Source: a virus | Taxonomy: Duplodnaviria; Heunggongvirae; Uroviricota; Caudoviricetes | IMG/VR virus record: IMGVR_UViG_2563366949_000003 | Reading direction: 5' to 3' (one strand) | Length of the DNA stretch: 24,564 nt | In this document: positions 1 to 12,236 of the stretch, piece after piece | Layout of the letters: every line of letters starts with the position of its first letter | Numbering within the stretch: position 1 is the first letter of the stretch | Program-made: the position numbers and the translations under genes | The notes under the pieces: model-generated | Told to the model about the DNA's origin: nothing | Databases searched by the model: none | What the model saw: only the letters and a program-made list of their open reading frames with translations

Positions 1-102
1 GCCCATCCGGGGTGTACTTCCGGAGACATTGCAGATGCTTTTGCAGGTTACTCACGGCAGCGCGTTCTGCAGTCAGCAAGCAAGTTACGTCAGAGTGGGC
101 GT

Positions 103-6445: not shown

Positions 6446-6745
6446 AAAAATTCCTTAATACTGATAACTTGGCGCACTATACACACTTTCCTGAAGAAAG
6501 CTATAGTTTTTTGATGGGGTTGAAGATGGCTGGATGTCTAAAATAAACATTGCTTCATATGTTCAACTATGCGTTAATGATTGCGTCGGTTTGAAGAACA
6601 GACGATATACGAAGTAGTTTACTAAAGCAGTTCTCATTTCAGGTGTTATTCACTTATTCCTTCTTTGAGTCTCTCCAATTAAGTACGAAGTCGTTTCTGT
6701 TATACAAGCCATTTATGCCGAAAGGCTCAAGTTAAGGAATGTAGA

Positions 6746-6961
6746 ATGTCAAATAAAATGACTGGTTTAGTAAAATGGTTTAACGCTGATAAAGGTTTTG
6801 GCTTTATTTCTCCTGTTGATGGTAGTAAAGATGTGTTTGTGCATTTTTCTGCGATTCAGAATGATAATTTTCGAACCTTATTTGAAGGTCAAAAGGTTAC
6901 CTTCTCTGTAGAGAGTGGTGCTAAAGGTCCTGCAGCAGCAAATGTCATAATTACTGATTAA
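6746..6961 (+). CDS. cspB: Cold-shock protein CspB
   Basis: The 71-aa product [51 protein letters not shown]... carries the RNP1/RNP2 motifs and is near-identical to E. coli CspB. A long upstream leader is typical of csp genes. Confidence 0.9.
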
Positions 6962-7242
6962 AATTAATAGTTTGTCTGTATACGATAACGAAGAAGGCTG
7001 ATGCCTGAGTGGAGATACAGACAGAGTGGTGAATATTGGATCTCTTTAATAAATAGTAAGGAGATCCAATACATGAAACAATGGCCAGCATATTTGGCAA
7101 TAACTTAATCAGGAAAAGTATGCTAACCATTGTGGTGAAGTGCAGGTTTGCTGCATGAATAGTTTTACAGCAGAAGCTAACTGCTAGCATAGCAAAACAA
7201 AGTGCGTAAGTGGATGACTCCCACAAAAAGCACCACAATATT

Positions 7243-7267
7243 AAACCCGCTCAGGCGGGTTTTTTAT
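7243..7267. terminator. Hairpin terminator (AAACCCGC-TCAG-GCGGGTTTTTT)
   Basis: GC stem followed by TTTTTTATT on the plus strand. It sits between convergent cspB (+) and the minus-strand zinc-ribbon ORF. Confidence 0.55.
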
Positions 7268-7324
7268 TATCTGCTTTAAATATGTTATTAAAATATAAAA
7301 AATACTTGTTACGAATAAAATCAA

Positions 7325-7495
7325 TCAAGCTACAGCTTTAAGATTTGTCTGGAATACTTTGTTGCAATGAGGGCAGATCAAAAGAGCACCTTTTTGTACT
7401 CTTGAAAAACTGTGTTCTGACTCTTGGGTGCAGTTTGGGCAGGAACATTTAACGAGATAATTACGGCGTGATTTTGAGTCTTTACGTTCTGACAT
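7325..7495 (-). CDS. Small zinc-ribbon protein (CxCPxC...CPHC), unknown function
   Basis: AGGAAA lies upstream of the ATG at 7493-7495. The 56-aa product MSERKDSKSRRNYLVKCSCPNCTQESEHSFSRVQKGALLICPHCNKVFQTNLKAVA has two Cys pairs about 20 residues apart. The track's longer form (to 7546) lacks an RBS. Confidence 0.4.
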   Translation of the reverse strand: MSERKDSKSRRNYLVKCSCPNCTQESEHSFSRVQKGALLICPHCNKVFQTNLKAVA

Positions 7496-7713
7496 AGGCT
7501 TTTCCTGTATAAATGGCCGTATACAGTACACTAAATGTGAAAACATATCTCGTATTATTATTTAATATATGATTTTCTTTTAAAATAATTACCCACATTT
7601 TTAATGTGTCTGTTTTTTAGCGCCGTTGAGAACAACGTTTGCTATAAAAACTAACCCATAGACTCCGATCTTTTCAAACATATTGCACCATCTGTGTACA
7701 TCGGGGTGAGGAT

Positions 7714-7929
7714 ATGAAATCAATGGATAAGTTAACAACAGGTATCGCCTATGGCACATCGGCGGGTAATGCTGGTTTCTGGGCATTGCAGTTACTCGAT
7801 AAAGTAACTCCGTCACAGTGGGCTGCAATCGGTGTGCTGGGTAGTCTGGTTTTTGGCCTGCTGACATATCTGACAAACCTTTATTTCAAGATTAAAGAAG
7901 ACAGGCGTAAGGTTGCGAGAAGAGAGTAA
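7714..7929 (+). CDS. essQ: Holin, phage 21 S-type (class II)
   Basis: The 71-aa product [31 protein letters not shown]... has two transmembrane segments and a charged C-terminus, matching S21/EssQ-type holins. Confidence 0.85.
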
Positions 7930-7933
7930 TCCA

Positions 7934-8485
7934 ATGACTCAAGACTATGAACTGGTTGTGAAAGGAGTTCGCAATTTTGAGAATAAAGTGGCGGTAACTG
8001 TAGCCTTACGGGACAAAAAACACTTTGACGGTGAAATTTTTGACCTGGACATCTCGCTGGACCGTGTTGAAGGTGCCGCGCTGGAGTTTTATGAGGCAGC
8101 AGCCAGAAGGAGCATCAGACAGGTCTTCCTGGATGTTGCTGCCGGGTTATGTGAAGGGGATGAGCAGTCGCCGGAAAAGCGCCCCATAATTTTAGAGGCG
8201 CAGAATGTGTGGATAACCTACAAAGGAAAGCTACCGGGAAGAATTACTGGTTCTCTGAAGACGCCACCGACGGCATTGCGGTCAGAAAAAGATGATATTG
8301 AATCGCCCATTGAAAAACTGGAGGGCAGCGTCGCTGATCTGAATAAAAAATTGTCGGTGCTGATTCCTTCTGAAGATGAAAAAAAACGCCGCGATGAGCA
8401 GTTTGCGGCGTTTTACGATTATTGCATTGAAGTTACTCGCAGGAATTTTGTGAAGATTTTTGAGGAGGGTAAATCTCTTCAGTAA
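7934..8485 (+). CDS. DUF1327 (YdfR-like) protein with C-terminal extension
   Basis: ATG 7934 follows the holin stop. The N-terminus MTQDYELVVKGVRNFENK... resembles Qin YdfR, but this ORF is 183 aa versus about 100 aa recalled for YdfR. Its 3' end overlaps the convergent ORF by 53 nt and contains a hairpin. Confidence 0.5.
   Translation: MTQDYELVVKGVRNFENKVAVTVALRDKKHFDGEIFDLDISLDRVEGAALEFYEAAARRSIRQVFLDVAAGLCEGDEQSPEKRPIILEAQNVWITYKGKLPGRITGSLKTPPTALRSEKDDIESPIEKLEGSVADLNKKLSVLIPSEDEKKRRDEQFAAFYDYCIEVTRRNFVKIFEEGKSLQ
8379..8414 (-). terminator. Intrinsic terminator for minus-strand ORF 8433-8693 (GC stem CGCCGC/GCGGCG, then U8 on the minus strand)
   Basis: The inverted repeat 8387-8392 / 8405-8410 is followed on the minus strand by the complement of an 8-A run. 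It lies about 20 nt past the minus-strand stop. Confidence 0.5.
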
Positions 8486-8693
8486 GCTTATTGGCGGACG
8501 CTGCAATTAATTCAGGAAGGTCCGCAAGGTCATCTGTCAGTGGATATGATGAAAAATCGGCGGCAGTTCTGTTAAGAAGCGCTTTAACTAATTCCTTTTC
8601 CTTCTCCGGCAACAAGTTGATTAGAGCTACGACTGCTTGCCTGAGTGCGATTAAATCAGCAAAAGTTTGTTTTGGTAGATTTGTGTAATCCAT
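8433..8693 (-). CDS. Hypothetical acidic protein (86 aa), convergent to the late operon inside the lysis cassette
   Basis: AGAGG lies 6 nt upstream of the ATG at 8691-8693, and a strong terminator follows the stop. The product MDYTNLPKQTFADLIALRQAVVALINLLPEKEKELVKALLNRTAADFSSYPLTDDLADLPELIAASANKLTEEIYPPQKSSQNSCE has no recognised family. Confidence 0.4.
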   Translation of the reverse strand: MDYTNLPKQTFADLIALRQAVVALINLLPEKEKELVKALLNRTAADFSSYPLTDDLADLPELIAASANKLTEEIYPPQKSSQNSCE

Positions 8694-9834: not shown

Positions 9835-10085
9835 ATTAATATTAAATCGGATTATTTTTAGCGCTGAATGTGAAATTTAAATAAAAAGGACTCTTCCATG
9901 AGTCAAAATCCTTGAAATCTTAAGGGTAAGATAAAAGGTCATTAGACAGAATGACACGTTTTATTAATAAATAAAGCTATTGTTTCATTCGTGTGTTTTT
10001 CTTTACAAAAGTAATCCTTGCTATGGTTGGTTAATCATGCGTTAATGGTGTTCTGGTTTGTTACAAAATTATCTGAAGCAGTCAT

Positions 10086-10094
10086 TGTTATAAT
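10086..10094 (+). promoter_or_regulatory. Candidate extended -10 promoter element (TGTTATAAT) for cspI
   Basis: A perfect TGnTATAAT lies about 105 nt upstream of the cspI ATG, consistent with the long leaders of csp genes. It has not been tested. Confidence 0.3.
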
Positions 10095-10197
10095 TTTATT
10101 ATTTGTACCTCTTGAGATTTCCTTGTTGGTTTTTCTCTCTGATATTTTTTTTCGGACCATTCTGCCCAAGGGCTAACTTCTTCAAAAGGTAATAATG

Positions 10198-10410
10198 ATG
10201 TCTAACAAAATGACTGGTTTAGTGAAATGGTTTAACCCTGAAAAAGGTTTTGGTTTCATCACGCCGAAAGATGGTAGCAAAGATGTGTTTGTCCATTTCT
10301 CAGCTATTCAGAGCAACGATTTCAAAACGTTAACTGAGAATCAGGAAGTCGAATTTGGTATTGAGAACGGACCTAAAGGCCCCGCGGCTGTTCATGTTGT
10401 GGCACTTTGA
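10198..10410 (+). CDS. cspI: Cold-shock protein CspI
   Basis: The 70-aa product [70 protein letters not shown] matches CspI as recalled. Confidence 0.9.
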
Positions 10411-10609
10411 GGTAGAAAATATTACAAACCATATTCACTTTAGATGCCCGTGTTGCCATGGTTCTCAGTATAGAACATCATCTTTTGATGTTTCTGACAG
10501 GAATCCTTTCGGGGCAAAATGTATCTTTTGTAAATCAATGATGATTACATTTGATAATATTTCACAATACTTAAATGTTAGCCGTCTGTCGTTAGATTTA
10601 AGAAAGTGA
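10394..10609 (+). CDS. Candidate small zinc-ribbon ORF (CPCCHG...CIFC) downstream of cspI
   Basis: An in-frame ATG at 10394 overlaps the cspI 3' end, and the stop lies 6 nt before the terminator at 10615. The RBS is weak and the start uncertain; the track's TTG start is at 10355. Confidence 0.3.
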
Positions 10610-10681: not shown

Positions 10682-10912
10682 ATGAAAAAAATAATAGTTT
10701 TTTTTAACTCTGAACCAGCAATGGTAGTGCCAGTGATGACCGGAGTTAACACCATCATGCGTGAATATCCAAATGGCGAAACAACACACCTCACTGTAAT
10801 GGCTGCAGGGTTTCCATCTCTGACCGGAGATCATAAAGTCATTTATGTAGCAGCGGATCGACATGTAACTTCAGAAGAAATTCTGGAAGCAGCAATGAGA
10901 CTCTTGAATTGA
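10682..10912 (+). CDS. Hypothetical protein (76 aa)
   Basis: ATG 10682 is the first ATG of the ORF and has no clear RBS. The stop TGA 10910-10912 lies 4 bp before the IS2 left end and is native, not created by the insertion. No family recognised. Confidence 0.3.
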   Translation: MKKIIVFFNSEPAMVVPVMTGVNTIMREYPNGETTHLTVMAAGFPSLTGDHKVIYVAADRHVTSEEILEAAMRLLN

Positions 10913-11007
10913 TTTGTAGACTGGCCCCCTGAATCTCCAGACAACCAATATCACTTATTTAAGTGATAGTCTTAATACTAGTTTTTAGACTAGTCATTGG
11001 AGAGCAG

Positions 11008-11373
11008 ATGATTGATGTCTTAGGACCGGAGAAACGCAGACGGCGTACCACACAGGAAAAGATCGCAATTGTTCAGCAGAGCTTTGAACCAGGGATGACG
11101 GTCTCCCTCGTTGCCCGGCAACACGGTGTGGCAGCCAGCCAGTTATTTCTCTGGCGTAAGCAATACCAGGAAGGAAGTCTTACTGCTGTCGCCGCCGGAG
11201 AACAGGTTGTTCCTGCCTCTGAACTTGCTGCCGCCATGAAGCAGATTAAAGAACTCCAGCGCCTGCTCGGCAAGAAAACGATGGAAAATGAACTCCTCAA
11301 AGAAGCCGTTGAATATGGACGGGCAAAAAAGTGGATAGCGCACGCGCCCTTATTGCCCGGGGATGGGGAGTAA
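11008..11373 (+). CDS. insC: IS2 transposase OrfA (InsC)
   Basis: The 121-aa product [41 protein letters not shown]... contains a helix-turn-helix. The slippery A6G at 11325-11331 is at its 3' end. Confidence 0.9.
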
Positions 11374-12236
11374 GCTTAGTCAGCCGTTGTCTCCGGGTGT
11401 CGCGTGCGCAGTTGCACGTCATTCTCAGACGAACCGATGACTGGATGGATGGCCGCCGCAGTCGTCACACTGATGATACGGATGTGCTTCTCCGTATACA
11501 CCATGTTATCGGAGAGCTGCCCACGTATGGTTATCGTCGGGTATGGGCGCTGCTTCGCAGACAGGCAGAACTTGATGGTATGCCTGCGATCAATGCCAAA
11601 CGTGTTTACCGGATCATGCGCCAGAATGCGCTGTTGCTTGAGCGAAAACCTGCTGTACCGCCATCGAAACGGGCACATACAGGCAGAGTGGCTGTGAAAG
11701 AAAGTAATCAGCGATGGTGCTCTGACGGGTTCGAGTTCCGCTGTGATAACGGAGAAAAACTGCGAGTCACGTTCGCGCTGGACTGCTGTGACCGTGAGGC
11801 ACTGCACTGGGCGGTCACTACGGGCGGCTTCAACAGTGAAACAGTACAGGACGTCATGCTGGGAGCGGTGGAACGCCGCTTCGGCAACGAGCTTCCGGCG
11901 TCTCCAGTAGAGTGGCTGACGGATAATGGTTCATGCTACCGGGCTAATGAAACACGGCAGTTTGCCCGGATGTTGGGGCTTGAACCGAAGAGCACGGCGG
12001 TGCGGAGTCCGGAGAGTAACGGCATAGCAGAGAGCTTCGTGAAAACGATAAAGCGTGACTACATCAGTGTCATGCCCAAACCAGACGGGTTAACGGCAGC
12101 AAAGAACCTTGCAGAGGCGTTCGAGCATTATAACGAATGGCATCCGCATAGTGCACTGGGTTATCGCTCGCCACGGGAATATCTGCGGCAGCAAGCCAGT
12201 AATGGGTTAAGTGATAACAGGTGTCTGGAAATATAG
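11331..12236 (+). CDS. insD: IS2 transposase OrfB (InsD; DDE catalytic domain, made as InsCD fusion by -1 frameshift)
   Basis: The 301-aa ORF is in the -1 frame relative to insC and overlaps it. It carries an IS3-family DDE integrase core. Confidence 0.9.

Follow-up and report, generated by a model that had tools for sequence, protein, structure and literature searches.

The stretch of DNA analysed here, hereafter the window, comprises 24,564 nucleotides of a Caudoviricetes virus (IMG/VR record IMGVR_UViG_2563366949_000003), and the gene under study occupies positions 7325..7495 on its minus strand, where the sequence reads an ATG at 7495-7493 and a TGA at 7327-7325. Its product of 56 residues (MSERKDSKSRRNYLVKCSCPNCTQESEHSFSRVQKGALLICPHCNKVFQTNLKAVA) is the putative zinc-binding protein YnfU, an assignment drawn from the ORF read, RefSeq, Pfam, NCBIfam and dN/dS. 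The protein is small (6.4-kDa) and basic (pI 9.4, 10 K+R against 4 D+E, net charge about +6), and its cysteines follow the pattern C17-x-C19-P-x-C22, an 18-residue spacer and C41-P-H-C44. Two plus-strand genes, both identified from their ORFs and RefSeq labels, lie on either side: cspB (6746..6961), which encodes a cold shock-like protein and is convergent with ynfU, and essQ (7714..7929), which encodes a class II holin, is divergent from ynfU across a 218-bp intergenic gap and is treated here as context outside the ynfU unit. A GC-rich hairpin separates ynfU from cspB, and a Shine-Dalgarno (SD) motif and a conserved block precede the ynfU start codon.

The initial annotation, made from the sequence alone, had described this frame as a small ORF with a zinc-ribbon cysteine pattern and suggested a profile search of the product, which bore the description out with full-length matches to a curated family, YnfU, far above the cut-offs (Pfam PF23499: 107.7 bits vs a cut-off of 27, E=2.5e-31, positions 1-49 of 49; NCBIfam NF038384: 79.8 bits vs 36, positions 1-51 of 52). 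A 521-bp stretch around the ORF was found at an identity of at least 90% in 1653 of 5426 complete E. coli genomes, and at those loci RefSeq labels the gene “ynfU: putative zinc-binding protein YnfU”, adjoining essQ. The K-12 MG1655 copy is b4776 (1640805-1640975), located in the cryptic prophage Qin in the gene order essQ / ynfU / cspB / cspF / ynfS / ydfT(Q). The number of ORFs carrying such a motif also exceeds chance, with two ORFs of 50-90 aa with CxxC-10..30-CxxC in the window vs a mean of 0.15 in 200 random first-order Markov sequences that were generated with the transition frequencies of the window.

Translation of the gene, for which Ribo-seq had been proposed as a check, is already documented. 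ynfU was discovered by Ribo-RET, i.e., profiling of stalled initiation complexes, and confirmed by a chromosomal SPA tag and western blot at 37 C in LB, where YnfU exceeded the other newly found small proteins in abundance and alone among them had a recognisable motif, described as a “pair of zinc knuckles” (two CPXC); modelling matched it moderately well to PA0128 (Weaver et al., bioRxiv 10.1101/511675). Its translation was seen again by PIRT-seq (PMC12350097). The literature that we searched for YnfU function or cold induction offered detection and the motif and nothing further, and no metal analysis of the protein was found in it; in a silver-nanoparticle paper, the sole ynfU-related report was one low-frequency intergenic polymorphism, ynfU-cspB. 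The 56-codon frame is thus a catalogued, experimentally confirmed E. coli gene that was already known and is not new, and both its identity and its translation are essentially settled. As a discovery it carries little weight, since ynfU is annotated, has curated models and has had its translation confirmed twice experimentally; what it still offers is a set of leads to the role of YnfU, namely the csp linkage, the mostly chromosomal distribution and the conserved upstream block.

Conservation was assessed with 80 species-level ynfU loci fetched from genome collections, in 78 of which the ORF is intact. Pairwise comparison of 72 distinct sequences from >15 genera gave a median dN/dS of 0.12, with dS at a median of 1.5. 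Over 72 distinct nucleotide sequences, entropy averaged 0.65 at the first codon position, 0.36 at the second and 1.23 at the third, and the other five frames over the gene are closed almost always. These substitution patterns show strong purifying selection on the ynfU frame throughout Enterobacteriaceae; the initial annotation had made the gene's standing depend on conservation of the frame in homologous regions, and that conservation was found. The start is equally well maintained, with the ATG of the 56-aa form kept in 79/80 loci and an SD-like motif at -17..-3, also in 79/80. In the window this motif is AGGA (7503..7506, minus strand), 7 nt 5' of the ATG and within a conserved CAGGA block, which agrees with the good ribosome-binding site claimed for the gene. 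A mechanical ORF list had proposed a 73-aa form starting at an ATG at 7546; that ATG occurs in only nine of the 80 loci, and the 56-aa start is therefore the correct one. A chance open frame with accidental cysteines, a reading that has the small size of the gene and nothing else in its favour, is refuted by the matches to curated families, the detected translation, the purifying selection and the conserved start and SD motif, and we regard it as practically impossible.

Relatives of YnfU were sought in 5.8 billion proteins with a word-indexed search, which returned 49 clusters, nearly all labelled Enterobacteriaceae, and in 1.84 billion representatives with a full HMMER search, which returned 41 matches to the YnfU profile. 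Genuine domain fusions were absent from these 41 matches, where the long ones were read-through or chimeric gene calls or unrelated Cys-repeat proteins. Within the reach of these searches, the family is very small and confined to Enterobacteriaceae and a few distant, taxonomically unidentified relatives. Across 28 members, K5, L14, P20, C22, S26-E27-H28-S29-F30, K35, P42 and C44 are invariant, and C17, C19, C41, R4, R11, N12, R32, Q34 and G36 are near-invariant, so that conservation covers two CPxC knuckles (C19-P-N-C22 and C41-P-H-C44) as well as the inter-knuckle SEHSF..R.QKG. The distant members (53-63 aa) have lost C17 and kept CPxC..SxHS..R[VI]xK..LICPxC..LF. This loss indicates that the zinc site of YnfU is an ordinary four-Cys one and makes the inter-knuckle loop the best candidate for a functional surface. 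We strongly infer from the alignment that C19/C22 and C41/C44 coordinate one zinc in a predicted four-strand zinc ribbon. The structure search that had been suggested for the product gave a divided result: an AF2 model built from the 28-sequence alignment has strands at 13-16, 27-30, 38-40 and 47-49 in a zinc-ribbon arrangement, but with a mean pLDDT of 62, and Foldseek with this low-confidence model found no PDB match under E = 1 (best about 1.2). The YnfU profile likewise had no match under 0.01 to PDB sequences in hmmsearch (best E 0.014), and the Foldseek list was generic, comprising PA0128, LysW, eL42-type ribosomal proteins and HVO_2753.

These residues also bear on whether YnfU mainly handles metal, as a zinc buffer, metallochaperone or thiol/redox sensor, instead of docking on a macromolecule. 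Five cysteines that are invariant or near-invariant in close relatives, together with the invariant His28, would suit such a role, the database name says just “putative zinc-binding protein”, and a preprint groups ynfU with iron-metabolism genes that were upregulated in hypomagnetic cultures, a state likened to lag phase, although as an assertion without mechanism. The loss of C17 in distant members, however, leaves one ordinary four-Cys site, and a single structural site in a basic protein of this size is typical of zinc ribbons and not of buffers. Moreover, the most conserved residues are those of the non-ligand loop, suggesting a binding surface, and the neighbourhoods of ynfU contain no recurrent metal-homeostasis genes. 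On balance, a primary role in metal handling seems improbable to us.

The region upstream of ynfU is conserved beyond the SD motif. Among 75 distinct upstream sequences from many genera the consensus is rAGCwAT..TGTAtgGT..CCaTT..CAGGA, and the elements are spaced as rAGCwAT, about 17 nt, (G)TG-TAnnGT, 5-7 nt, CCaTT, 3-5 nt, CAGGA, 6-8 nt and ATG. The corresponding block in the window (7511..7551, minus strand) consists of GAGATAT at 7545-7551, 16-17 nt, TACTGT at 7523-7528 and GGCCATTT at 7511-7518, and its conservation makes it a probable promoter or operator of ynfU. RNAalifold predicted 0 conserved pairs across 32 genera-spanning sequences, a result that speaks against a structured or thermosensing leader, and for that reason the block is read as the likely ynfU promoter, with TAnnGT as a -10-like element preceding a leader of some 25 nt; an operator may possibly overlie it. 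The -35 region fits TTGACA poorly, and only chance-level matches were obtained from a generic promoter scan and from a search for the upstream motif elsewhere in the window. An inverted repeat, CTGTATA-N8-TATACAG (7505..7526), overlaps the SD motif and the -10-like element and resembles LexA half-sites; it is perfect only in Escherichia-type sequences and is not conserved in other genera. LexA boxes have the spacing CTG-N10-CAG, whereas the repeat is spaced as CTG-N16-CAG and is therefore not a canonical SOS box. With respect to the cold-shock regulon, Rfam matches to the cspA thermoregulator within the window were restricted to cspB (5'UTR at 6585-7024, RF01766, 159 bits) and cspI, and a cspA-type structured 5'UTR is absent from ynfU, which has neither an Rfam match nor a conserved leader structure.

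Downstream of ynfU, the terminator scan and folding placed the GC-rich hairpin at 7243..7268, with a stem at 7243-7262 (8 pairs, 5 of them G-C, and a loop of 4) and a T-run on the plus strand. The extended hairpin folds at -21 kcal/mol on both strands (z = -5.6 and -4.7 vs shuffles). On the plus strand the stem is followed by TTTTTTATTAT in the terminator scan, giving a canonical U-tract (UUUUUUAUUAU), and on the ynfU (minus) strand by UUUAAUAUU, a weak U-tract. The hairpin lies about 60 nt past the ynfU stop and 281 nt past the cspB stop, and is thus not tightly between the two genes; the 281-nt spacer on the cspB side had no Rfam match near threshold to a known sRNA. Escherichia, Citrobacter, Klebsiella/Raoultella and Superficieibacter all have a palindromic hairpin, AAAACCCGC..GCGGGTTTT, at a distance of 60-110 nt behind ynfU, and in Klebsiella/Raoultella it is symmetric, in the form AAAA-stem-UUUU. 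By its features the hairpin of the window is a canonical terminator only in the cspB direction and possibly a weaker terminator or pause site for ynfU. That the two convergent genes share it, as the initial annotation proposed, is accordingly only partly upheld: a strong hairpin does lie between them with a canonical U-tract on the cspB strand, but the U-tract on the ynfU strand is weak. Shared or bidirectional termination is nevertheless plausible, as it fits the finding that bidirectional terminators driven by RNAP collision are prevalent between convergent E. coli genes, in a paper that mentions neither cspB nor ynfU (bioRxiv 10.1101/2022.10.23.513370).

Such an arrangement raises the alternative that transcription of ynfU matters and its protein does not, in that collision-type bidirectional termination at the hairpin would insulate the lysis cassette from cspB read-through. 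The cspB promoter is strongly cold-inducible, and the plus-strand terminator may well shield the lysis cassette from cold-induced cspB transcription. The layout of the locus is compatible with insulation, as cspB and the lysis genes are on the plus strand with ynfU antisense in between and a strong hairpin at the point of convergence, and collision-driven terminators of this type have been described in E. coli by the same study. Yet the protein sequence of YnfU is under strong purifying selection, the gene is kept at chromosomal sites that have no lysis genes and often no convergent csp, and the plus-strand terminator is canonical by itself, so that any benefit to the phage would be secondary at best. 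We therefore consider it doubtful that insulation explains the gene.

To place ynfU in its genomic context, the genes within 3 kb were counted at 79 species-level loci. A csp gene was near ynfU at 55 loci, most often convergent and downstream, while 24 had no csp nearby; YnfN-like proteins were encoded at 26 loci, YmcF-like proteins at 10, a related lysozyme at 10 and an EssQ-type holin at seven. With roughly nine csp paralogues per 4.6-Mb genome, about 1% of randomly placed 6-kb segments would be expected, by rough reasoning, to include one, which makes a linkage of 70% striking, although the figure is inflated by the shared ancestry of the loci, and the linkage may stem partly from that common ancestry rather than from function. 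When the longest ORF on each side of ynfU was scanned in 20 genus representatives, 18 had housekeeping flanks, including ArsB, PurB, PhoQ, NhaC-type antiporters, a GH1 glycosidase, malic enzyme, PdxA, aldehyde dehydrogenases, an MCP, an EAL/GGDEF protein and similar; a phage-type flank (DUF1367) was seen at one locus and an SRAP peptidase at one more. In Klebsiella/Raoultella, ynfU is flanked by an SDR gene and, on the opposite side, by a LysR regulator with acetolactate decarboxylase/synthase genes, and distant homologues adjoin DinI, Usp, ABM and YdhR genes, or TetR and MFS genes.

Carriage by phages is rare. Only eight of 50,697 phage records contain ynfU, six of them from Qin-like Escherichia phages whose copies are identical or nearly so. 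In Klebsiella phage ST13-OXA48phi12.4, ynfU is divergent from a different holin and has no csp gene beside it, and in phage PHB10 a ynfU-csp-cspF group adjoins an SRAP gene and an integrase, far from any annotated lysis gene. The initial annotation had found the adjacency to the holin notable and had suggested that small proteins of this type are often phage regulators or inhibitors of host machinery. A YnfU that acts as such a phage-encoded factor, or as a lysis modulator whose role is reflected in its position, would be in keeping with its divergence from a holin in the window, in K-12 Qin and in ST13-OXA48phi12.4, where the two holins differ, with identical copies in active temperate phages and with expression from the K-12 prophage. 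Against it, the holin and lysozyme counts above are low next to those of csp, the flanks are mostly housekeeping genes and the distant homologues are chromosomal, the PHB10 copy sits beside an integrase with two csp genes, and YnfU had no PHROG family match. The gap between Q and the holin is, besides, the usual cargo (moron) slot of lambdoid phages. Judged from these loci and phage records, the distribution of ynfU is not phage-centred, which argues against placing it among phage-specific inhibitors; neither part of the suggestion was supported, and a dedicated phage or lysis function strikes us as a poor candidate.

The explanation that we prefer for the whole of these observations, with a probability of roughly 55%, is that YnfU is a stand-alone basic zinc ribbon, encoded by a unit that travels with csp genes and was taken up as prophage cargo, and that, more speculatively, it docks on RNA or an RNA machine. 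The comparative context supports ynfU as a self-contained unit, equipped with a promoter-like block, an SD motif and a downstream hairpin of its own; its usual companions are csp genes, and ynfN or ymcF-like genes are often nearby. The ordinary chromosome is its place in most genera, while the Qin-like lambdoid phages of E. coli carry it as moron cargo in the Q-to-holin slot, where its orientation antisense to late transcription means that a lysogen would express it independently of lysis. The working surface most probably consists of the loop S26-E27-H28-S29-F30..R32..Q34-K35-G36 and a basic N-terminal tail (R4 K5 R11 N12). With this surface YnfU, like other small basic zinc ribbons, might dock on RNA or on a machine that handles RNA, such as the ribosome or RNA polymerase, and it might work alongside the linked Csp RNA chaperones in stress or at low temperature.

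The functional end of this explanation is its least certain part. That YnfU uses the tail and the SEHSF..R.QKG loop to dock on RNA or RNA machinery, and that it helps in cold or translational stress with Csp, is speculative, argued by analogy and, in our estimate, clearly more apt to be wrong than right. Against the preferred explanation count the low pLDDT, the non-significant PDB matches, the detection of the gene at 37 C in LB, the poor -35 match of the putative promoter, the loci without csp and the distant homologues beside DinI/Usp/YdhR or TetR/MFS genes. A mostly chromosomal, csp-linked gene with a conserved upstream block nonetheless makes cold or translational stress a better lead than lysis control or anti-host activity. 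A broader and still more tentative version, which we think has only a minor chance of being correct, holds that csp together with ynfU, ynfN and ymcF-like genes forms a small mobile cold-shock cassette that hops between chromosomal sites and lambdoid phages, that YnfU is an RNA- or ribosome-binding partner of the Csp chaperones under low-temperature or other translational stress, and that rAGCwAT..TAnnGT is the operator/promoter of a shared, undescribed regulator.

Among known systems, the closest is K-12 YnfU itself (b4776 in Qin; PF23499, NF038384), a protein of equal length and 96% identity that differs by two substitutions (D6 for N and K53 for N) and shares the order essQ / ynfU / cspB / cspF / Q. 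The prophage described here is a fuller lambdoid one, with terminase, portal and capsid genes, compared with the cryptic Qin remnant in K-12. The N-terminal zinc ribbon of PhnA/YjdM (PF08274; PA0128, PDB 2akl) has two CxxC knuckles at a spacing near that of YnfU, and PA0128 was recovered at Foldseek rank 2 and also by hmmsearch, the same weak likeness that Weaver et al. noted. Membership of that family was rejected, as PF08274 scored 22.4 bits, below its gathering threshold of 30.8, and the Foldseek (E 1.5) and hmmsearch (E 0.53) values were equally poor; YnfU is also without the C-terminal domain of PhnA, and what the two share is a general property of the fold. The YmcF-like cold-shock small proteins (PF23641), with a member encoded at 10421-10609 of the window, are likewise small, four-Cys, zinc-ribbon-like and csp-adjacent, and the two families occur in the same csp islets. 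They differ from YnfU in their Cys pattern (CPCC..CIFC) and conserved loop, and homology between the two was rejected at an hhalign probability of 2% over 7 aligned columns. Small ribosome-bound zinc ribbons (eL42/L44e; HVO_2753-like) resemble YnfU in size, basic character and knuckle spacing, and ribosome-type ribbons are among its weak PDB matches, all with non-significant E values (0.03 or worse) that make them a lead only. Finally, ynfU fits a lambdoid prophage moron in its position, its hairpin and its putative promoter-like block, with expression from Qin known from the literature. Like the morons of the Q-to-S gap, it lies between antiterminator Q and the holin, is expressed from the prophage and forms an independent unit flanked by a promoter-like block, as inferred here, and a terminator. 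Unlike a phage invention, ynfU is mostly chromosomal outside Escherichia, which suggests that the phage copy is captured cargo.

The 76-aa ynfN (window 10682-10912, plus strand), which has no Pfam family, was the second most frequent neighbour of the zinc-ribbon gene ynfU, being found in 26 of the 79 species-level loci, including loci outside phages. Taken with the csp genes, this pattern points to a recurring small islet. In phage PHB10 (L083, 3600-5900), we observed a compact cassette that comprises a 75-aa ORF, ynfU, a 41-aa ORF, a csp gene, a cspF-like gene and a gene for an SRAP peptidase, and that adjoins the integrase. The Enterobacter hormaechei locus (L044) likewise has an SRAP gene beside ynfU, and this shared neighbour hints that the ynfU/csp/SRAP cassette is mobile as one block.

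Two csp genes of the window, with their 5'UTRs, gave full-length matches on the plus strand to the Rfam cspA thermoregulator (RF01766), at 6585-7024 for cspB (159 bits) and at 10040-10456 for cspI (110 bits). Directly 3' of cspI lies a second small four-Cys zinc-ribbon ORF (10421-10609, plus strand), which was assigned via its homologue to the YmcF-like family (PF23641) and whose product is named "cold shock small protein YmcF" in RefSeq. This ORF has no detectable homology to YnfU, yet the YmcF-like family and ynfU were found together in 10 species loci. The plus-strand spacer from the cspB stop to the terminator hairpin (6962-7242) is unusually long at 281 nt and contains a 9-bp stem, TGTCTGTAT/ATACAGACA, at about 6973-7023, as well as a small hairpin, AGCAGAAGCTAACTGCT, at 7169-7185, a counterpart of which was seen in the Enterobacter, Kluyvera and Citrobacter amalonaticus loci. 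The spacer had no Rfam match, and it could represent a structured cspB 3'UTR or a 3'UTR-derived RNA.

Comparison with the otherwise matching prophage of strain 144 (L001) revealed a difference directly after ynfN, where the window carries two overlapping plus-strand ORFs of 136 and 301 aa (10963-12236) and the strain 144 prophage carries gnsB. The pair resembles orfA/orfB of an IS2-like element of the IS3 family and is probably an IS insertion particular to the strain of the window. In this identical prophage, RefSeq marks the ydfR-like gene that follows the holin gene essQ as an incomplete pseudogene (L001 12735-13494, against window 8209-8693), with an unnamed 86-aa ORF placed on the opposite strand. 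Given this pseudogene call, the lysis cassette of the window may be partly decayed even though the structural genes are intact.

Four ynfU loci (L003, L025, L039 and L041) are recorded under Veillonella, Vagococcus, Kocuria and a Bacillota MAG. Because their sequences and neighbours look Enterobacteriaceae-like, these attributions most likely reflect binning or assembly contamination of the public records. The record names of three YnfU homologues (P0002, P0007 and P0009), which include "aspartate carbamoyltransferase regulatory subunit" (JGI) and "permease, cytosine/purine..." (NCBI), are evidently automatic mis-annotations of a zinc-ribbon protein of 56-78 aa.

A cis-block whose conservation extends across genera precedes ynfU (window 7511-7551, minus strand). 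It reads rAGCwAT, ~17 nt, TG-TAnnGT, CCaTT, CAGGA and ATG, and it recurs in the related loci (L002-L081) in the stretch of about 75 nt upstream of the gene. No consensus RNA structure was found for the block, which probably serves as a promoter or operator whose -35 element is poor. A perfect inverted repeat, CTGTATA-N8-TATACAG (7505-7526), overlaps the ynfU SD and a -10-like element and is limited in its perfect form to Escherichia-type sequences. The repeat is similar to LexA half-sites, yet its spacing is CTG-N16-CAG, as against the N10 of LexA.
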